The notes beneath the pieces were generated by a model. That model did not search any database, was not told the origin of the DNA, and saw only the letters and a list, made by a program, of their open reading frames with translations. A program made the position numbers and the translations under genes. From positions 224,001 to 288,000 of the forward strand of contig CAWFSF010000005.1 of the NCBI GenBank assembly GCA_963818475.1: a stretch of DNA of 64,000 bases, written 5' to 3'. This stretch comes from Nitrospirota bacterium (GTDB taxonomy: Bacteria > Nitrospirota > UBA9217). Below are positions 37,151 through 49,144 of the stretch, one piece after another. Positions within the stretch are counted from its first letter, which is position 1. Every line of letters begins with the position of its first letter.

Positions 37151-39680
37151 TCACTGACCCCGCGGTTTTGCGCGCCGCGTGGGCACGGCGTTCCAGGGAT
37201 CGTCGGGCCAGGGATGCTTCGGGTAGCGGCCTTTCAGGTCCTTTTTGACCAGCGGGTAGCCGGTGTTCCAGAACCCTTTCAGGTCCTGCGTGATCTGGAC
37301 CGGCCGGCGCGCCGGCGAAAGCAGGTGGAGCAGCACCCTGACCCTGCCGTCTGCAAGCAGCGGCGTATCAGCCAGCCCGAACATCTCCTGGAGCTTGACG
37401 GCAAGTACGGGCTGATCTCCTGAAGCATAATCAAGCATTACCTGAGATCCGCTCGGCACGGCAATGGACAGGGGTGCGCGCCTGTCCAGCAGCCGCCCCT
37501 GTTCCCAGGTCAGACGGGCCTTGAGCGCCGGCAGGAGTGAGAGCCCGCCGAGCCCCGCGGTCGTGCGGATATTCACCAGCCAGGGCAGCAGCCATTCCTC
37601 CGGCCTGGACAGGAGCGCGTGATCAGCAAGGTCCGGCCAGGCCTCTTCGGGAAAAGCTTTCTGTATCAGACCCACCCTGGCCTGGAACTGGCGCGCCTCC
37701 CTGGTGAACGTCAGCATACCGGGTGCCGCGCGGATCGCTTCGCACAGGATCGGGGCCGCCTCCTCGTCGGACGGCTTGAAGGGCCTGGAGGACAGCAGCA
37801 TGGTATCGAGACGCTCTTCGATCGCGGCAACGATCCGCCCCTGGCTCCGGTCCCATTCCACCCGCCGGATCGATCGAATGCGCGCAGCGCATTCGTCCCG
37901 AATCAGCTCTTCCGTCACCGGCGCAGCGAGGTGAACAACGCCTTCGGCCTTCATTCCGGCATCGACCTGCACAGCAATGATAAAGGGATCGTTGACCAGA
38001 TGGCTGTCCATGGACAGCCGTACACCCCTTCCCTGCGTCAGGATGTACACCCGGCCGCCGTCGTCGCGGCGCTTAGCGACACGGTCCGGATAGGCCGAGA
38101 GCAGCAGCCGGGACAGCGTGCCGGGATCCACACCTGTTTGCGCGGCTGTATTCCGTGTTTCCGGCAGCAGGCGCTGAAGCTGCTTTGCCGTCCTGTCCAC
38201 GGCGCGCAACGCAGAGGGGTCAGCGCCTGCGCCCGCTTCTTTTCCGTTCCGCCACTGCTGCAGCAGAACGACCCGCTCAGCGACATCAGGTTCTTTGCCG
38301 ATCCCTGCTCCAGCGTTTTTTCGCACCAGGTCCCGTTCAGAGAGAATGGCGGCGAGATCGACGCCAAGGTTTGTGCAACCCAGTTCCTTTGAGCGCAGCA
38401 GCAGGCGGCTTAAGCGCGGATGCAGCGGGAAACGGGCCATGGCACGGCCGACCGTGGTGACCGAACCGGTCCGATCCAGCGCGCCGAGGTCGATCAGCAG
38501 TTGCAGGCCCGAGCTTCCATGCCGCAGCAGGCGGCAGATCGAGCCAGGAAAGCTTCATTGGTTCCTTTACGCCCCAGACCGCGAGTTCAAGCACGAGCGG
38601 CGCAAGGTCGGACCCGAGGATCTCCGGCAGCGTAAAGGCCTGCATGCCCTTGAGCGCGAACTGATCGTAGAGGCGGTAGCATACGCCCGGCCCGAGCCTG
38701 CCCGCCCTGCCCTTGCGCTGCTCTGCCGAAGCCCGGGACAGCTCGATCGTCACGAGCCGGTTCATGCCGGTCGAGGGATCGTACTGCAGCCGCCGCGTCA
38801 GGCCGCTGTCGATGACCACCTGCACGCCCTCGATGGTCAGGCTCGTCTCGGCGATGTTCGTGGCGAGCACGATCTTGCGAAGGTCCCGCGACGGCAGGAT
38901 GGCGCGCTCCTGTTCTTCGAACGGCAGGTCGCCGTACAGCGGGTGGAGCGCAAGGCGGTCCTCGATCAGGTCCAGCGAAGCGCGCAGCTCACGCTCGCAG
39001 GCCCGGATCTCGCCGGCCCCGGGCAGGAACACCAGGATGTCGCCGTGGGTCTGGCGCAGGGCCGTCCTGACCGCGGCAGCGACGCGCATCGGGAGCGGGC
39101 CCGACCGGTCTTCGAGGTAGCGCTCTTCCACGGGAAAAGCCTTTCCCGTGGACGTGATGATTGGCGCTCCGCCCAGGAGCGCGGCAATGGGCCCGCAGTC
39201 GAGCGTGGCGGACATGACCAGCACCTTCAGGTCCTGCCGCAGACCGCTCTGGACATCGAGACAGAGCGCCAGCGCCAGATCGGCATGGATGCTCCGCTCG
39301 TGGAACTCGTCAAAGATGACCAGGGATACGCCCGTAAGTCCGGGATCGGACTGCATGCGGCGCGTCAGGATGCCTTCGGTAACGACCTCGATGCGTGTCC
39401 TGGCCGAGGTCTGCGTGTCAAAGCGGATGGAATAGCCGATCGTTGCGCCCACCGGTTCGCCCAGCGACTTCGCCATCCAGCGCGCTGCGGAGACGGCCGC
39501 GAGCCTTCGCGGCTCGAGCATGATGATGCGGCCCGCTTCAGGCCGCAGCACGTCAAGCAGCGCGATCGGCACGCGGGTGGTCTTGCCCGCCCCGGGCGGC
39601 GCGTGCAGTATGACGGCAGGATGGCGCGCCACCGCGTCCTTGAGCTTCGGCAGAATGGTGTCTATGGGATAGGAGGTCAC
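37151..39680 (-). CDS. hrpB: ATP-dependent RNA helicase HrpB (frameshift near 38510)
   Basis: APPGAGKTT, DEFHER, MSAT, TNIAETSLTI, QRKGRAGR, LLSPARRPVQIT, RYPKHPWP. Confidence 0.96.
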
Positions 39681-39855: not shown

Positions 39856-40503
39856 TCAGCGCGCGTACTTCATAAACTTTTGATACACCTCGATATGCAG
39901 CAGCTCGGAGGGTATGATGCGCAGCTCGACCACGCCGCGCTCACCGCGCAGGATATGCTCCGGATGGACCGTTGCCGCAAAATAGGCTTTGAACTTCTGT
40001 TCCAGTTCAGGCTCCGCCTCGTACAGGGAATCCTCCAGGAGCGCGACCATCTGCTGCGCCTGCGTCCGCAAGGCGATGGTGGCATGCTTAGGACCGTCTG
40101 CGGGGTAGTGGATGCTGACCAGTACAATGCTGATGTTGCTTCTGGTGCGGGCGTCGGACAAGAGCGAAAGAAACAGGCTGGACAGTTTCCTGGTGATGTT
40201 CTGTGACGATGGTTTAAGAACGCCGTCCGCAGAGAACAGGACGGACCCATTGATGAGGATCGAGCTCGACCGGACCTGGAGGCCCTTGATCTGCAGCGCC
40301 CCGAACTCCTGCTGGAAGTTCTGACTGAGATTCCTGGCAAACTCGTTCCGCGGTTGGGAAAGGGCCAGGGCCGGTTCCAGGTACCGCTGGATCTTGACGG
40401 CGCGGTAATAGAGGAGCGCGCTCAGTACCACCAGCCCGATCAGCAGCAGGCTCAGGACCGGCCCGGCAGGCGGAACGTATTTCCACCAGGTCCGGCGGTT
40501 CAT
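39856..40503 (-). CDS. Single-pass membrane protein, degenerate MotB/OmpA-like C-terminal fold
   Basis: One TM; ILINGSVLF...LKP pattern; ends in VELRI; ATGA overlap with upstream gene. Confidence 0.65.
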   Translation of the reverse strand: MNRRTWWKYVPPAGPVLSLLLIGLVVLSALLYYRAVKIQRYLEPALALSQPRNEFARNLSQNFQQEFGALQIKGLQVRSSSILINGSVLFSADGVLKPSSQNITRKLSSLFLSLLSDARTRSNISIVLVSIHYPADGPKHATIALRTQAQQMVALLEDSLYEAEPELEQKFKAYFAATVHPEHILRGERGVVELRIIPSELLHIEVYQKFMKYAR

Positions 40504-41390
40504 GATGCCGTCTTCTCCAGGAGTGTCATTTTCTTCTCCAGCGTTTTGAAATCCTCTTCGGTAATGGTCGTCGGCTTGTGCACCGCCTTGTTCCGCAGAT
40601 ACATGAGGTCGTTGAACAATCCTGCCCGGTAGCGGCTGATCCGGCGGCTTTGCTCCATCTCTTTCAATCCTTCGGACAGCACCGCGAATACGCGGCCCGT
40701 CGCCGCAGTGGTGAGCGCCTTCAACCGGCTCTCGATATAGTGGCCCAGCAGCAGGGCAGCGACGACCTGTTCTCCTGCGCGGAAATATTCCAGGGCCTGG
40801 TCAACGGATCCGCCGCCTTTGACGATGTGGAGGTTCTCCCGTGACTCGGTCTCGCCGGGAGCCAGTCGCTGGATCTTCTGATAAACCTCCTCGCATTTGT
40901 CCAGCATGTTCTGGTCAAGATAGGATTCCGCAAGGAGGAAGAGTTCCCGGATGTTGTCGGCGCCTTCTCGTTGTTTGGCGGCGAAATCGTGGGCGCGCCG
41001 CAGGGCCTCGGTCTTGTCGTCCTTCTTGTCGAGCACGTCGAAATGCCGGGCCCAGCGCTTGCCCTTCAGCACGTTGTCCTTGGTGAAGCGGAACAGGCGC
41101 TCCGAGACCTCGCTTTTGTCCAGTTTGCCGCTGACGACAATGATGTTCAGGTTCGGATGGGTCTCGAAAAGCTGCGGCAGGGCGTCGACGCCTTCGTTCA
41201 TCTTGTCGAACTCGATATCGAGCGTCATGAGGTCGAAGACCTGCGCGGTCAGGACCTTCACGGCATCGCGGACGCTTGCCACCTCGTGGAAGCGCAGGTC
41301 CGGCTCGCGATCGCCGAGCGCCCGCTGGATCTCCAGCTTCAGAAGCTCGCGATCCTCGAAGTCGTCGTCGGCGATCAGCACCTTAAACAT
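40500..41390 (-). CDS. Response regulator with TPR and C-terminal HEPN (DUF4145-like) domain
   Basis: REC: IADDD, TLDIEF, VVSG, DKK; TPR helix pair; AALLLGHYIESRLK...LMYLRNKAVH. Confidence 0.85.
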   Translation of the reverse strand: MFKVLIADDDFEDRELLKLEIQRALGDREPDLRFHEVASVRDAVKVLTAQVFDLMTLDIEFDKMNEGVDALPQLFETHPNLNIIVVSGKLDKSEVSERLFRFTKDNVLKGKRWARHFDVLDKKDDKTEALRRAHDFAAKQREGADNIRELFLLAESYLDQNMLDKCEEVYQKIQRLAPGETESRENLHIVKGGGSVDQALEYFRAGEQVVAALLLGHYIESRLKALTTAATGRVFAVLSEGLKEMEQSRRISRYRAGLFNDLMYLRNKAVHKPTTITEEDFKTLEKKMTLLEKTAS

Positions 41391-41438
41391 GGTTCGTGTC
41401 CTCAAGAGCGGCCGGCACCCTCTGCGTTACATGCTTCC

Positions 41439-42497
41439 TCAATGGTGGCCAACCCCCTGTACCGTATTTGCTTCCTCAACGAAGGGCAGATTGATGATGA
41501 CCTCCGTACCCGCGCCCGGCGCAGTAAATTCCTTGCCGATGCGGATCTTGCCTGCATGAAGGCCAACGACATATTTGGTAAAATAGAGTCCCTGCCCCCA
41601 GTTCTCTCCCGTGCCCATTCCCTTGTAAAAGCACTGGTCCGCCTGCTGTTCGTCCATCCCGATCCCGGCGTCGCGGACGGAAACCGTTACATACTGCCGG
41701 GTGCCGTCCCGGTCCATGGAGCAGGACACTGCGATGCGCGCACGGGGCTGGTCCGGTTTTTTATATTTGACTGCGTTGTCGATGACATTTTCAAACACTG
41801 TTTTGAGCAGCGGCGGAGCGGCATAGAGCATGGGCACGGACCGGCATTCAGCAATGGCGATGTCCGCCAGATCAGCGTATTGCCCTGCCAGTTCGCCGAG
41901 CATGGCCTTGACATCGAGGTACTTGAACTCGACCAGGCCCGCCTCGCGCTCGTCGGAGATCTTCTTGAAAATATCGATGTCGGCAAAGAGCTTGTCCAGG
42001 TTGTCGTCGATGCGTTCCCGGGCGTCCTGAGGCAGGCCGGGCAGCAGGTTGATGCGGCGCTTGATCCGGCCGAGGTTGTTCTTGAACTCGTGCCCGATGG
42101 TAGCGGAGATATATCGGATGAACTCGTTCCGCCGGGCGATCTCCTGGTTCTTCAGCTGCAGGATCATGTTCTCGCGGGCGCGCCGCTGCCGCTGTTGATA
42201 GACAAGGGTCAGGTACAGCGTGAGGGCGGTAAAGGACAGGATCAGCCCTGCCAGCGCATACTGTGCGACATTGCCCGACGCATCGAGCATCCGCTGCATG
42301 GCCGCAAGCCGGTTATCAAGGCTGACCTCGGCCGGAAGGGTGCTCAGCGCCGTCCAGGGCATGAGCCAGAGCTCAAGGCGGTCAAAGGGCCGGACAAACT
42401 GGTCCAGGTAGACCATGCCGGCAGTGAGCCAGATAGAGACCATGAGCGCGGTCAGTGCCAGGACCTGCATTTTATGACGAATCGAGATAGTAGACAT
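41439..42497 (-). CDS. Membrane sensor histidine kinase
   Basis: Two TM; GHEFKNNL H-box; NVIDNAVKY, DAGIGM, GQGLY. Confidence 0.9.
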   Translation of the reverse strand: MSTISIRHKMQVLALTALMVSIWLTAGMVYLDQFVRPFDRLELWLMPWTALSTLPAEVSLDNRLAAMQRMLDASGNVAQYALAGLILSFTALTLYLTLVYQQRQRRARENMILQLKNQEIARRNEFIRYISATIGHEFKNNLGRIKRRINLLPGLPQDARERIDDNLDKLFADIDIFKKISDEREAGLVEFKYLDVKAMLGELAGQYADLADIAIAECRSVPMLYAAPPLLKTVFENVIDNAVKYKKPDQPRARIAVSCSMDRDGTRQYVTVSVRDAGIGMDEQQADQCFYKGMGTGENWGQGLYFTKYVVGLHAGKIRIGKEFTAPGAGTEVIINLPFVEEANTVQGVGHH

Positions 42498-42552
42498 CGA
42501 TGCCTTAATTTATTCCAAAGGAAGTTTTTTTACAACAAGAAAAAGGCGCATT

Positions 42553-43662
42553 TTACGAGGGCAGCACCACGCTCCGCAGCTTCTCCGCCGCATCTTCCGG
42601 GCAGACCGTGTTCACGAACAGGCCCGACCCCAGCTCGAACCCCGTGGGAATGCTCGTGCGCGGGCAGATCTCGATGTGCCAGTGAAAGGAGGCCGCGTTC
42701 CCGGCGTACTCTTCGCCATGCGGGCAGGGAATGGAAGAAGAAATTATACTGCACGCCGCCGAGCACCGTGTTGAGCCGCGCCATGGTCCTTCGGAAGATC
42801 CGCGCGAGGTCGGCGAGGTCTTCCGGCGTCGGCATCGAGGAAGTCGGCCTGATGCTTGAGCGGGAGGATATGCACCTCCCACTCATAGCGGCTGGCAAAG
42901 GGCTTGATGGCGATGAACGCAGCGGCTCCGCTCGATCACGAACTGGCCCACGTTGATCTTGCGCCGCACCTCGCCGGACTCCCGGTCGTAGAGGGTCGCC
43001 TCGAAGGTCAGCGCCTCGTCAATGGAGTTGCAGAAGATGCAGCTCTGCGAGGCCTGGTAAAAGGCCGCGCTGTTCCGCACCTCTGCCTGCACGTTGTCCG
43101 GCACGACCGGCATGGCGATGATCTGGCTGTGCGTGTGGCCGATGCTGGCGCCTGCGGCAGGGCCGAAGTTCTTGAACAGGAGCACATACTTCAGGCGGTC
43201 GTTGGAATGGTAGAGCTGCTCCATGCGGCTGCGGTACGTGGACAGGAGCAGCGCAAGATGCTCTTCGGACATCTCATGGAGCCTGATGCCGTGCGAGGCG
43301 TGGTCGATGACGACCTCATGCCGGCCGTATCCGTCGATGGTCTGCTGCATGCCGAAGGCGAAGTTCGGGTTCCGGCGGTCGTCTCCCAGCACCGGGTAGA
43401 GGTTCTCCACGAGGCGCAGCTGCCAGTCTCCGGCTGCCGGGACCTGGGCGATCGGCGCCGGCGTCTTGTCCTCGTTGCCCTTGCAGAACGGACAGGTCTC
43501 CACAAAGGTCCGCGCGTCATAGGGCGCCGGCGCTTCCTCCTTCTTGGGCCGCAGGCTGCGCGCCGTGGCCACCAGCACCGACTCCGACGGCACGATGGGA
43601 TTGATCCGTATCTCGCGGACGGCCTTGGCCTGCCCTGGTTTAGCATCTGCAGAAGCGCTCAT
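42553..43662 (-). CDS. galT: GalT-family hexose-1-phosphate nucleotidyltransferase (frameshifts near 42925 and 42830)
   Basis: CPFCKGNE, NLYP, GYGRHEVVI, FKNFG..AGASIGHTHSQ, FHWHIEI, GFELGSG. Confidence 0.88.
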
Positions 43663-44048: not shown

Positions 44049-44762
44049 CTATGCCGGGATGTCCCGTGCGATCTGGTCCCTGATGTAATCGCGCACGAAG
44101 ATCCTGTCCTCGGGGCGAATGCTCGTGAACCTCAAGCCCATGCCAGGTTGTTTATGCTGCCCCCCGATCATGGTCGAGCTGTATTGCACGACCGCAGACA
44201 CGCTGATTACCTTGTTCATAATGAACAGGGTAAGGGAAAGGACCGTATGTACCGGCTCAGGTGCGCTCGAGTATACATAGCAGCCTCCTTCCGAGAGGGA
44301 GGTCACCTGTTCCTGCCGAATCGCACCGGCCCTGCTCTTCACTTCGGCCTTCAGCAGCGTGTCGATCCTGATGTTCTTTCGCGGCATGCGCTCCGTTGCA
44401 GCCTGAATGGCGCCGTAGAGCACACTGAAATCAGTCGGCTTCCGGTAAAACTCCGTGCATCCTGCGGAAAAACAGGCTTCCCGCACGCTGGAATCGTTTT
44501 CAGAGGAATGCACGATCACCGGCACGGTCTTTAACTGCGGGGATTGCCTCATTTCCTTCAGCATCTCGATGCCGCTCTTGGCAGGAAGGGCGGTGTCCGT
44601 CAACACCAGCGCGGGGAGAACTTCGGTCATGGCGCGCAGGGCATCGTCGGCGTTCATGGCGGAGCGCACTTTGTAATCGAGCTTCCGGAGCATGGTCCCC
44701 ATGAAGAATATATGCGATGCGCTGCTGTCCACGACCAGGAGCGATCGTATTTCCCCGTCCAT
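44049..44762 (-). CDS. Response regulator with C-terminal PilZ domain
   Basis: REC with LTD and KP; RKNIR (RxxxR), SLSEGG, GMGLRF. Confidence 0.88.
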   Translation of the reverse strand: MDGEIRSLLVVDSSASHIFFMGTMLRKLDYKVRSAMNADDALRAMTEVLPALVLTDTALPAKSGIEMLKEMRQSPQLKTVPVIVHSSENDSSVREACFSAGCTEFYRKPTDFSVLYGAIQAATERMPRKNIRIDTLLKAEVKSRAGAIRQEQVTSLSEGGCYVYSSAPEPVHTVLSLTLFIMNKVISVSAVVQYSSTMIGGQHKQPGMGLRFTSIRPEDRIFVRDYIRDQIARDIPA

Positions 44763-45027
44763 CTCGTACCTCCCTGCTCGCCATGGCATGTCACCGGTTT
44801 GCCGGGATCAGGACCAGCAACTGTTCTGACCTTCAGGCCGGGGGCTGAAAAGCCGGACCTGACAAGCGCCTATGGAAGAGCGACGTTCTGATCGTTTAAA
44901 ACCTACAGCATTAGGCGGGTATTTGCAAGGATTCCGATGGGGTAATTTCAGGGTATTGACAAAATGTTGCATTTATGGTGCGGACTTTTCCTGTGTACTG
45001 CTGGAGGTCCATGATCTAGTCAACCCG

Positions 45028-46666: not shown

Positions 46667-48671
46667 TCAGGTGAACAGCTTCTGGAAGAAGCCCTTCTTT
46701 TCCTCTTCCCTCTTTTGCCTTATCGCATCCATATGCTTCAACGCGGTCTTGTTGTTCGGGTTGAGCTTCAGGGCTTTCAGGAACTCCGCCTCGGCAAAGT
46801 TCACGCTGCCCTCATCAAGGTACATCGTGCCCTTCAGCGCGTAGGAGATGGCCAGTTTTCCGAGCTGCAGGGACCGGTTGACCGCATCCTTTGCGCGTTT
46901 GATTGCTGCGCCATTCCCCTTGGTAACGGGATTGTTGTAGATAGCCAGCGCCAGGTAGGCGTGGTATTCCGCTTTATCGGGATCGAGGTTCAGGCAGTTC
47001 GTGAAGGCCCTCTCGGCGCTATCGCACTGGCCCTGCTCCAGCAGCACCTTGCCGGACTGGAACTGGACCTTTTCGTAGAACTCCTTGTCGTCGCCCTCGG
47101 CCGGTACCTGCTCCTGCTGGGAAAGGATATCGTCGTAGTTTTCCTTGGACACCACGTTGGAAAGCGTTTCGTAGGCATGGGAGGCCTTGGACAGAAGCTC
47201 CCCGGCAAGCTCCATGATCTGGCCTGAACTGCCGAAGAACTTCTCCGGACCATAGGTCCTGGTCATCTCGAAATAGGCTTTTTTCAGCTTCTCGAACGAG
47301 AAGGTCTTGGGCGTCATCCCGAACATCTCGTAGAAGTTCTTTTCCTTGATCGCTTCCCACTGGCTGCTCAGGTCCTCTTCAAGGGCCGTGAGCCCTTCGG
47401 TTGGCACTGCAGCTTCCTTCATTGCTCCCAGAGCGCCGACCTCGTCGGCAAGCTCGGCGAGCGCCCCGCCCAGGTCCTCGAACATTTCTGCAGGCGCCTC
47501 AGCCGTGGTGCGGATCGCGTTTTCTGACCGGAAAGGGAGGCAGGACCGCAGCTTGCACCGGGGCTTCGCTGTAGGAAAGCATCTTCAGGTAGTCGAGCGT
47601 GTACAGCACGACCGCGACATCTTCGGCATCAGTGGACGCCGGCGATGTCGGCGCAGGTCCTGGTGCCGTCGATGAGATCAAGCAGCTCCGGGTTTGTCAG
47701 TTCCGCGGCAAGATGGTTCTGGTGCTCAAAGAACTCCGCGGTCCTGGCCGCATAGAGCTTCCCTTTCTGTGCGACAAAGGAGCTCATGAGCGCAGGGTCC
47801 GGATGGGCGCTGAACCCCCGGTAAAAAAGCGCGGGCATGAACGCAGCTGCGGCAGGAGACCGCCGTGACGCACGATGCGCTCCACTCGAACAGGATCGTG
47901 CCGGATTTCCAGGAAAAGCATTCGACCAGCCGGTCATGCATAAAATGCGTATGCTCTTCCTGGAACGCCCGGGGCGTCAGGCAGCCCATCTTGATGAACA
48001 GGCTTCTCGAGTCCGCAGCCTCCGCCCTTCTTCAGGTCCTCATAGGCCTTCAGCTCTGCGCCGTCGATACGGTTCTTCTGCGCCAGAAAGGCGCCGAAGC
48101 CGGCATCGTCTGCGGAGAGCTCAAGTTCGACGAGCGCGCCATCGATAAAAAAGAACTTCCGCTGCAAAGGCTCGCGTGCAACGGTCAGGACGCCGGTCGC
48201 TTTTTTCTTCAGCAGATAGAACAGCACTTTTTCAAAGGGAGTTGTATCGAGCTTCGCCTGCAGGGACGTCTGCGGGGGGGGCGCTGCGGCCTCGGGTGTC
48301 CGGGCCTGCAATGCCGATGAGATCACTTCGTACAGCGTATCGGAAGAAAAGGGCTTGGTCAGAAAACCGCTGAGCGCAAGCTCCCGGGTCAGCCGCTCGA
48401 TCTCGGAGGGGTCCCTCTCGGACATGCTCATCATGATGATCGGGATGGTCCTGCCTTTTGTGCTTTCCCTGATCTTCCTGCAGACATCGTCGCCGTTCAT
48501 CATCGGAAGCTCGATATCGATCAGCAGCAGATCATAGGACGCCGCCACAAAGGAATGGACCGCGCTGATGCCGTCCGACACGATCCGGGCATCGATTTCC
48601 TTCCGTTTCAGGAACCTGGCGATAAGCTCTGAAAGTTTCTGATTGTCTTCAATGATAAGGATGTTTGGCAT
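46667..48671 (-). CDS. REC-DUF4388-J-like-TPR multidomain protein (several frameshifts, about 47500-48030)
   Basis: MPNILIIED REC; KKATGVL...FFIDG DUF4388-like; NFYEMFG...LKKAY J-like; C-terminal TPRs. Confidence 0.75.
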
Positions 48672-48718
48672 ATCATGAATACGAATACAAGAGCGCAGGT
48701 CGGGCTTAAAACCCGCCG

Positions 48719-49144
48719 CTACAAGTCGGTACTCCCCTTCTTCTGCGGCTCGCCCGGGCCGGTTTTTGCCAGGCTTTTCTGATGGAGCGACTTGAAGATC
48801 ATGTCCAGGACCCGCTTCTGCTTGCCCTCGAACTTGTTCAAAACCGCGAGGCACGTCCCCATGGGAAAGCGCTCGTGCAGATAGTCGGCATCGCGTCCGG
48901 ACACGATGACGATGCGGTTCTTGTTCACCCCTTTGGACAGGGCATAGGCAAGGACCTTGGAACCGTCCAGCGCGGGCATCTCCAGATCGATCAGCAGCAG
49001 ATCGAGGTCTGCGGTGATGGAGACAAGGCATTTTATCGGATCATTGCAAGTTGAGACATGGAGGGCGGGATAGTGCTCGGCAACATAGTCTTCGAGCAAT
49101 TTCAGAAATGCGGCATCATCATCGATCAGCAGGATATTTCCCAT
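48719..49144 (-). CDS. Single-domain response regulator
   Basis: LIDDD, IDLEMP, VSG, LNK. Confidence 0.88.
   Translation of the reverse strand: MGNILLIDDDAAFLKLLEDYVAEHYPALHVSTCNDPIKCLVSITADLDLLLIDLEMPALDGSKVLAYALSKGVNKNRIVIVSGRDADYLHERFPMGTCLAVLNKFEGKQKRVLDMIFKSLHQKSLAKTGPGEPQKKGSTDL

Follow-up and report, generated by a model that had tools for sequence, protein, structure and literature searches.

The window analysed here is a stretch of 64,000 nucleotides (nt) from a Nitrospirota bacterium (GTDB lineage Bacteria; Nitrospirota; UBA9217; assembly GCA_963818475.1, contig CAWFSF010000005.1, positions 224,001 to 288,000), and all coordinates without a further label refer to it. As the first-pass annotation of this DNA had noticed, three co-oriented genes lie at positions 39856-42497. 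The open reading frame (ORF) listing confirmed them as three tightly packed ORFs on the minus strand, in the order sensor histidine kinase (HK), response regulator (RR) and a membrane protein, here called P3. The public annotation of the proteins reads just 'response regulator' and 'hypothetical protein'. The locus brings together complete sets of kinase and receiver residues, a HEPN-like output domain with an invariant motif and a motor-less ZorB-like partner, and its genes overlap and are strictly co-inherited. The triplet is best explained as a self-contained chromosomal three-gene signalling module of Nitrospirota. The start of the RR gene had to be corrected. It is listed as 40500-41405, from a TTG at 41405, but the actual start is almost certainly the ATG at 41390, because the homologues are 296 amino acid residues long and begin with MFKVLIADDD. 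RR residues are numbered from this MFKV. The features of the locus are as follows.

41439..42497, minus strand: sensor histidine kinase (HK), 352 residues (ORF, HATPase_c match, hydropathy)
42090..42092, minus strand: codon of HK His136, the predicted autophosphorylation site, in SATIGHEFKNNL; invariant in 18 of 18 sequences
40500..41390, minus strand: response regulator (RR), 296 residues plus stop, with receiver, TPR-like and HEPN-like parts
41016..41390, minus strand: receiver (REC) domain of the RR, residues 1-125, with D8, D9, D58, S87, K122 and a basic insert
41217..41219, minus strand: codon of RR Asp58, the predicted phospho-acceptor (TLDIEF); invariant in 18 of 18 sequences
40806..41012, minus strand: long helix and TPR-like hairpin of the RR, residues 127-195 (TPR_2 below cut-off)
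40503..40805, minus strand: HEPN-like (DUF4145-like) all-helical domain of the RR, residues 196-296 (profile matches, hhalign, structure model)
40731..40733, minus strand: codon of RR Glu220, in YIESRL; invariant in 18 of 18 sequences and aligned by hhalign to the first-helix Glu of DUF4145
40578..40595, minus strand: RNKAVH, an R-N-x3-H (Rx4H) motif with R266, N267 and H271; invariant
40500..40503, minus strand: ATGA overlap of the RR stop and the P3 start; the same 4-nt overlap in 8 of 8 family loci
39856..40503, minus strand: P3, 215 residues, a single-pass membrane protein with a ZorB/MotB-like fold
40405..40458, minus strand: transmembrane (TM) helix of P3, approximately residues 16-33 (hydropathy), without Asp or Glu
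39910..40281, minus strand: OmpA-like (peptidoglycan-binding-domain-like) fold of P3, approximately residues 75-198 (structure model, Foldseek, VIA-align)

Is this arrangement conserved in Nitrospirota? All 18 other loci examined carry HK, RR and P3 in this order, one of the loci being cut by a contig end. Eight of these loci come from the same family (seven other genomes) and the same genus (one), and 10 come from other families of the phylum. In nine loci compared all-against-all, the only genes in common are HK, RR and P3. Of 301 Nitrospirota genomes searched with a profile of the RR C-terminal domain, 43 had a strong match (E<=2e-26); a further 8 weak matches were to other proteins. The P3 profile matched the same 43 genomes at adjacent coordinates and none of the other 258. 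The conserved neighbourhood on which the first-pass annotation had made its proposal depend is borne out by both counts. The window's family accounts for 34 of the 43 genomes (34 of 64, the window's genome counted), and the other 9 belong to five other families. The identity of all three proteins to those of the window drops with taxonomic distance. The RR is 89-96% identical within the genus, 70-77% within the family and 59-65% in other families; the respective values are 91%, 66-75% and 58-62% for the HK, and 80%, 48-56% and 36-44% for P3.

The RR family is narrow. Among 1.84 billion cluster representatives, it forms one full-length cluster at 50% identity plus fragments, and all other matches concern the receiver or the TPR part alone. 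A pattern scan of one genome per species (185,579 species) confirmed 100 relatives. Among the best 80 of them, 76 are labelled Nitrospirota, Nitrospirae, Nitrospiraceae, Thermodesulfovibrionia or Sulfobium, and the remaining 4 are two short contigs labelled Betaproteobacteria and two labelled 'bacterium'. The HEPN-like domain had no tblastn counterpart in 72,556 plasmid and 50,697 phage records. Three metagenome-assembled genomes (MAGs) carry two divergent copies of the cassette: G001 (contigs C126 and C211), G046 (C126 and C147) and G178 (C24 and C327). The RRs of the two G001 copies are 89% and 73% identical to that of the window, and the second copy of G178 is of the type seen in other families (63%). 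Paralogy, transfer or mixed bins could account for such double copies.

The genes are not merely adjacent. The ATGA overlap of RR and P3 occurs in 9 of 9 loci, with the window included, and points to translational coupling. In nine distant loci the spacing is from -14 to +2 nt, the first ATG being taken as the start. Upstream, an 8-nt overlap between the HK stop and the RR start is found in 8 of 8 other family loci. The window departs from this pattern. Relative to the same-genus locus L013, an insert of about 74 nt lies at 41391..41464 (minus strand), by which the HK gains 6 codons and the usual 8-nt overlap ATGTTTAA is replaced by a 48-nt spacer before the RR start. Within this insert, TTGAGGAAGCA occurs twice, 38 nt apart.

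According to its hydropathy, the HK has two TM helices (approximately residues 10-31 and 80-100) around a periplasmic loop of about 48 residues. The DHp region follows the second TM helix directly, without a HAMP domain, and precedes a HATPase_c domain that lies above the Pfam cut-off (56.7 vs 26.4 bits, E 3.9e-15). Alignments of 18 sequences, which span several families of the phylum, were used for the HK and the RR. In the HK, H136, N241 of the N box, D276, G278 and G280 of the G1 box, and G301 and G303 of the G2 box are invariant in 18 of 18. The Pfam HisKA model gave no match in the HK, and the H-box was assigned by eye. A periplasmic motif between the TM helices, L-x-P-W, is also invariant.

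The RR begins with a receiver domain above the Pfam cut-off for Response_reg (38.6 vs 30.2 bits, E 1.3e-9). The first-pass annotation had described an intact receiver with an Asp pair, a phospho-accepting Asp in TLDIEF, a Ser and a Lys. These are D8 and D9, D58, S87 and, most likely for the Lys of the phosphorylation set, K122, all of which are invariant. The AlphaFold2 (AF2) model of the whole RR has a mean predicted local distance difference test (pLDDT) score of 72.2 and a predicted template modelling (pTM) score of 0.46. VIA-align of this model reached Z values of up to 15.0 against REC structures, which confirms the receiver fold. Helix 4 and strand 5 are separated by a basic insert, FRFTKDNVLKGKRWARH (residues ~100-116, nt ~41043-41093), which is invariant and which AF2 models with low confidence. 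The insert lies in the region that usually forms the dimerisation face of REC domains. It could be an RNA-contact or partner-contact surface. Adjacency and overlap of the HK and RR genes suggest that the HK may be the kinase that phosphorylates this receiver.

A TPR helix pair had been reported behind the receiver. As a TPR-like element it is supported by TPR_2 matches in 19 of 24 family members (E<=0.1) and by a match of the RR family profile to designed CTPR proteins (E 3.6e-5). The window's own TPR_2 match is below the Pfam cut-off (20.9 vs 27 bits, E 3.7e-4), and the AF2 confidence of this part is low.

The C-terminal part of the RR had been read as a putative HEPN RNase domain, on account of a Glu in YIESRL and the RNKAVH motif. 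Their coordinates proved exact, and the residues are E220 and R266 to H271. RNKAVH agrees with the general HEPN motif, Rx4-6H, in which a polar residue usually comes after the Arg. The RR of the window matches the Pfam family DUF4145 with 18.0 bits (cut-off 23.1, E 0.003, profile positions 4-83 of 88) and, faintly, HEPN_RiboL-PSP with 13.6 bits. When the C-terminal ~100 residues of 24 members were scanned singly, only HEPN families were matched, all of them below the cut-offs: DUF4145 in 9 members, HEPN_Swt1 in 6, HepT-like in 3, RiboL-PSP in 3 and Apea in 1. The best DUF4145 match among the members has an E value of 5.6e-4 (9 of 24 at E<=0.1). The alignment of the RR C-terminal domain was then compared by hhalign with 13 DUF4145 domains from related genomes, each above the Pfam cut-off, giving a probability of 93.1% (E 3.2e-7, 87 columns). 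The controls were clean: 0.1% when either profile was reversed, at most 0.3% in 30 column shuffles, and 4% for the RR's own TPR part. In the AF2 model the domain consists of five helices with pLDDT values of 71-92. The nearest ESM Atlas clusters for residues 190-296 are partly DUF4145 (scores 0.85-0.86), which is taken as a lead only. The HEPN reading was thus upheld by hhalign and by the invariant motif, but not at the level of Pfam thresholds, and the putative assignment is based on sequence profiles and the motif rather than on a fold match.

The R and the H were expected to be conserved if they were functional. R266, N267 and H271 show no variation, either in an alignment of 24 sequences or in the 18 from different families, and by eye the motif is kept as RN[KR][AT][IV]H in 10 of 10 distant loci. 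Could the domain nevertheless be a HEPN-derived or HEPN-like bundle that does not cut RNA? The RR would then act through protein or ligand binding by its TPR-like helices, as an adaptor or anti-adaptor of the RssB type, or through RNA binding without cleavage. The sub-threshold HEPN matches would agree with this, as would the presence of a TPR-like element, which is usually protein-binding. The strong conservation of the whole RR, including the basic REC insert, also fits a conserved protein or RNA partner. Moreover, non-catalytic HEPN domains exist, and several families in Table 1 of the HEPN census, as far as its accessible part goes, are without a conserved motif (PMC3710099). I regard this alternative as unlikely, since R266, N267, H271 and E220 stay unchanged even where the domain identity falls to 41%, as would suit an active site but not a scaffold, and since hhalign places E220 on the conserved Glu of DUF4145 and N267 and H271 on its N..H. 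Catalysis by the HEPN-like domain is the preferred prediction.

Two other DUF4145-type proteins were observed. The nearest relative in the phylum outside the RR family is a 336-residue protein (locus L139, 2101-3111, plus strand; G069:C6) whose C-terminal DUF4145-like domain carries RNDALH. Its N-terminal 230 residues have no assigned family, and its gene adjoins an ORF6N gene and an ISL3 transposase. The other, a canonical DUF4145 protein (72.3 bits), is encoded in the window's own genome, but on a different contig (G000:C2:48012-48278, minus strand; L021).

The third protein, P3, had been called a MotB/OmpA-like partner. P3 has no match in Pfam or NCBIfam, and its profile has none in the PDB sequences or Pfam. 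The PADLOC ZorB model matches it weakly (E 1.6e-4 for the window copy; 10 of 24 members, best 8.5e-6). The relationship was found at the level of the fold. In the AF2 model (pLDDT 82.8), a 55-residue helix that starts as a TM segment is followed by a beta-alpha-beta domain. The best Foldseek match is full-length ZorB (8vvi_A, E 1.5e-8, TMq 0.59, 226 columns), followed by the ZorB structures 8vvn and 8qyd and then by MotB, YfiB (5eaz, 6iki and 4zhv) and other OmpA-like domains. VIA-align gave a Z of 15.1 for ZorB 8vvi_B (200 residues, root-mean-square deviation (rmsd) 7.1), 13.2 for MotS (138 aligned, rmsd 3.2), 13.0 for PomB and 12.6 for MotB, and its first 34 rows are all OmpA/MotB-type domains. 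Judged from the predicted model, the closest solved relative of P3 is ZorB.

Is P3 the B subunit of a stator? In such rotary motors the TM aspartate (Asp26 in ZorB) is universally conserved and mechanistically essential, according to the accessible part of a Zorya study (PMC11946911). Neither D nor E occurs in the TM helix in any of 33 distinct family sequences. The search for an A subunit of the MotA/ZorA/ExbB type was limited to the cassette (9 loci) and to 49 proteins that flank it in 16 loci, and it found none. Given the absent aspartate (33 of 33) and the lack of a MotA/ZorA-type neighbour in these loci, P3 is not regarded as a stator B subunit. The best-conserved part of P3 is the juxtamembrane helix, and the N-terminal tail is conserved as WKYxPPxGP. 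A toxin-antitoxin (TA)-like role, in which P3 would sequester the RR through this tail and the TPR element, was considered.

The structure of a complex between two copies of HK residues 1-135 and two copies of P3 was predicted, and the score was 0.35 (runs 0.35, 0.33 and 0.40), against 0.01 for the highest-scoring of 3 controls. At least 86% of the contacts are common to the runs, and the partner pLDDT is at least 68. In the calibration of this score, 58 of 80 solved complexes and 2 of 110 mismatched pairs reached the mark, and the range up to 0.60 held just 7 of the 80 solved complexes plus both passing mismatches; the HK-P3 prediction, with four chains and custom alignments, is unlike the calibration design. 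The model lends weak support to a contact between the HK and P3. It may be argued that P3 stands outside the signalling path as a mere operon companion and that the HK senses alone through its own 48-residue periplasmic loop. The loop does have a conserved motif of its own, L-x-P-W, and the weakness of the complex prediction points the same way. Against this, P3 sits next to the RR in each of the 43 genomes (of 301) that have the RR and was found in none of the remaining 258; its start lies within -14 to +2 nt of the RR stop, overlapping or adjoining it, in 18 of 18 loci; and its juxtamembrane helix is what has been conserved best. I therefore consider a bystander role of P3 very unlikely, and P3 is taken below as a part of the signalling module.

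How may the three proteins work together? P3 would be a dimeric inner-membrane protein whose OmpA-like domain faces the periplasm and whose ancestor would have been a stator B subunit of the ZorB/MotB type. Having lost the proton-carrying Asp and being without an A-subunit partner, it may serve as a co-sensor of the state of the envelope by contacting the membrane and periplasmic part of the HK. The HK would autophosphorylate on His136, and the phosphoryl group would be passed to Asp58 of the RR. Phosphorylation of the REC domain may change the oligomeric state of the RR or lift an intramolecular block. HEPN RNases work as dimers. Two HEPN-like domains would then join their R-N-x3-H motifs into an RNase site, so that the output would be cleavage of RNA and not transcription. 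The steps that follow the HK-P3 contact, namely phosphorylation-driven dimerisation and RNA cleavage, are proposed by analogy with Ire1/RNase L, with CARF-HEPN proteins and with the dimer rule of HEPN RNases. The biological role would be a host envelope-stress, growth-arrest or RNA-turnover response, which is likelier than a mobile anti-phage system. Altogether, I consider it somewhat probable that the triplet is an envelope-sensing phosphorelay with a phospho-switched HEPN RNase as its output, serving a stress or dormancy response more likely than mobile phage defence. The earlier interpretation, which had already placed RNA cleavage downstream of the receiver, survived every computational test run; it is partly supported and remains a prediction.

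Several observations weigh against this proposal. No HEPN match reached the Pfam gathering score, the best of the window being 18.0 vs 23.1 bits. The fold searches with the whole RR (Foldseek pdb, VIA wide and BFVD) returned receiver matches in all lists and are uninformative on the C-terminal domain, and the profile of this domain found a chance match alone among the PDB sequences (E 0.65). I know of no RNase activity for any DUF4145-type domain. The TPR linker has an AF2 pLDDT of ~38-51, which, with the pTM of 0.46, makes the modelled placement of the domains relative to each other unreliable. As to the sensor arm, the stretch of P3 expected to hold the peptidoglycan-binding residues has no conserved Asp, Asn or Arg when mapped by eye. 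At the level of the HK-P3 score, the calibration gives more false passes than true ones, except for pairs that were likely partners from the outset, and its controls were unrelated, probably soluble proteins, which do not control for generic packing of TM helices. Among the listed sequencing runs that carry the sequence, none is RNA, and all 20 have at most 0.12 of the sampled words. Finally, the cassette is patchy within genera (8 of 15 genomes in g19, 3 of 6 in g10, and 8 of 9 and 0 of 6 in two others), and it is missing even from several family genomes with a completeness of 95-100%.

Such patchy presence also fits accessory defence genes. The same biochemistry might then belong to an anti-phage (abortive-infection) module, in which a ZorB-like, wall-anchored sensor would detect envelope damage by phages, as happens in Zorya, and would signal through a phosphorelay, not through a ZorA tail, to a HEPN RNase that shuts down the cell. 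The best structural matches of P3 are indeed Zorya ZorB chains, with PADLOC ZorB matches in 10 of 24 members, and the double copies in some MAGs, like the ORF6N gene and ISL3 transposase next to the nearest outside relative of the domain, would suit mobile genes. In the accessible part of the HEPN census (Anantharaman 2013, PMC3710099), HEPN domains are common effectors in abortive-infection (Abi), CRISPR and restriction-modification (R-M) contexts. On the other hand, the cassette has no ZorA/MotA-like gene, just three genes being common to the 9 loci, and none of the 33 P3 sequences has the essential motor aspartate. For a defence effector the RR is unusually conserved, with at least 59% identity across families.

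The genomic context speaks on this point as well. In the window, the neighbours of the cassette are an HrpB helicase gene in two parts and a GalT-like gene that looks broken; REC-PilZ and radical-SAM genes follow farther out. In 16 other loci the flanks vary and are mostly housekeeping genes rather than defence islands: gyrA, pheT, SMC, ribonucleotide reductase, panC and hisD, and further uvrA, msrAB, shikimate kinase and RNase II. The mobile or TA-type neighbours in these 16 loci are one HicB and one DUF3800, with no others. Given the housekeeping flanks, the absence of plasmid and phage copies among the records searched, the restriction to one phylum and the identity that tracks taxonomy, mobile defence is the least favoured of the roles that had been listed at first (defence, dormancy or envelope stress), and I hold the anti-phage module to be improbable. 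The context, unlike that of defence islands, argues for a lineage-specific host function that has been repeatedly lost. A phosphorelay serving the host's own stress or dormancy response is thus the reading carried into the following comparison.

Bacterial signalling relies mainly on response regulators as its output switches. To my knowledge, nearly all that have been characterised control transcription, second messengers, chemotaxis or proteolysis. CheB, PleD, RpfG, PorX, RssB and the ANTAR regulators resemble the RR in that a receiver controls an enzymatic, RNA-directed or adaptor output, but none was found with a HEPN nuclease output; PorX and RssB are among the Foldseek REC fold matches of the RR. 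In the literature covered, to which subscription journals contributed little, no description of a receiver-HEPN (REC-HEPN) regulator was found. The accessible part of the 2013 HEPN census has many DUF4145 fusions (REase, helicases, Sel1, ZnR, TM, TIR and others) and no receiver, though its supplement may hold more (PMC3710099); the same part discusses membrane-associated HEPN proteins under 'stimulus-dependent RNA degradation'. A term search of the available text of the HEF_HK / Response_reg_2 paper (PMC8011034) gave no HEPN, DUF4145 or RNase. Receiver domains in conflict systems are mentioned in the available portions of three further papers (PMC8195603, PMC7159879 and PMC11090510), which have no REC-HEPN regulator.

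Among the closest known systems, Ire1 and RNase L follow the logic proposed here. In these eukaryotic proteins the activation state of an N-terminal domain and dimerisation assemble the RNase site. As proposed for the RR, a signalling domain is fused to a C-terminal HEPN-type RNase, the KEN domain, whose family is included in the accessible part of the HEPN census (PMC3710099). The switch there is a protein-kinase or pseudokinase domain, whereas here it is proposed to be a receiver fed by a separate HK; there is no sequence relationship beyond the HEPN motif, and the activity of the RR is only predicted. DUF4145 (PF13643) is the best-matching family; it has about 90 residues and is all helical like the RR domain, and its RN-type members share the motif with the RR. 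The DUF4145 domains of R-M and Abi contexts differ in that the RR match is below the cut-off, a receiver fusion is not listed in the accessible part of the census, and the context here is housekeeping. HepT-MNT (HEPN-MNT) TA pairs resemble the triplet in having a HEPN protein with a co-expressed, translationally coupled partner, which in those pairs restrains the HEPN RNase. However, no MNT/NTase family was found in the three proteins (Pfam, E<=1), and the control proposed here is phosphorylation.

P3 shares with ZorB (8vvi, 8vvn and 8qyd) and with MotB, PomB and MotS a short N-tail, a TM helix that runs into a long helix, and a periplasmic OmpA-like domain. It differs from these stator B subunits by lacking the TM aspartate, an A subunit in the operon and, as mapped by eye, conservation at the expected peptidoglycan-binding positions, and its partner is a histidine kinase. 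Zorya itself consists of ZorA and ZorB with ZorC/D, ZorE or ZorF/G, whereas PADLOC finds a weak ZorB for P3 alone and nothing Zorya-like for the HK or the RR. YfiB, in turn, is an outer-membrane lipoprotein that acts via a periplasmic repressor on a diguanylate cyclase. The YfiBNR system of Pseudomonas is similar to the triplet in that an OmpA-like envelope protein is the sensor arm of a three-part system controlling a membrane-bound signalling enzyme. In the triplet, by contrast, it is the inner membrane that holds the OmpA-like protein, and a histidine kinase takes the place of the cyclase.

What is new here is a two-component system with a new predicted output class and an unusual accessory protein, and not a categorically new system. 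It is possible, and I suggest it only tentatively, that this is the first two-component system in which phosphorylation turns the response regulator itself into an active endoribonuclease, and bacteria would then have their own version of the Ire1/RNase L logic. The sensor arm would be a stator B subunit that has lost its motor and now probes the envelope, mechanically or chemically, through a link to the wall, passing its signal to a histidine kinase. If this is true, an RNA-cutting regulator adds a post-transcriptional and very fast class of output, and it would offer a direct test of whether receiver dimerisation can assemble a HEPN active site. A motor-less ZorB-like P3 would mean that stator parts can be re-used as sensors, which may help to understand envelope detection of the ZorB type. 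Most of what is known of the host lineage comes from metagenomes, but the small size of the three proteins and their suitability for expression in E. coli make a direct test of the hypothesis feasible.

A few minor observations concern the window around the cassette. The G+C content of the three-gene locus is 0.59, which is unremarkable within the window. Rfam and tRNA scans of the window gave no match, and a promoter and terminator scan was not usefully above the shuffled expectation. The HrpB-type helicase gene (37151-39680, minus strand) is split into overlapping ORFs in different frames: 38337-39680 carries DEAD and Helicase_C, and 37151-38440 carries HA2_C and HrpB_C. It is either a frameshifted gene or the result of an assembly indel; the HrpB region of L013 likewise aligns in pieces. 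The GalT / Ap4A-phosphorylase-like gene (42883-43662, minus strand; GalP_UDP_transf and DUF4921 matches) seems to be continued in two other frames (42553-42882 and 42530-42898) and thus looks broken at least twice. It is absent from the syntenic L013, where the REC-PilZ gene lies directly before the HK gene. Further receiver proteins are encoded nearby in the window, namely the REC-PilZ protein (246 residues, 44049-44789, minus strand) and a 365-residue protein with a central REC domain (47934-49031, minus strand), and a 272-residue DnaJ-TPR protein is encoded at 46667-47485.

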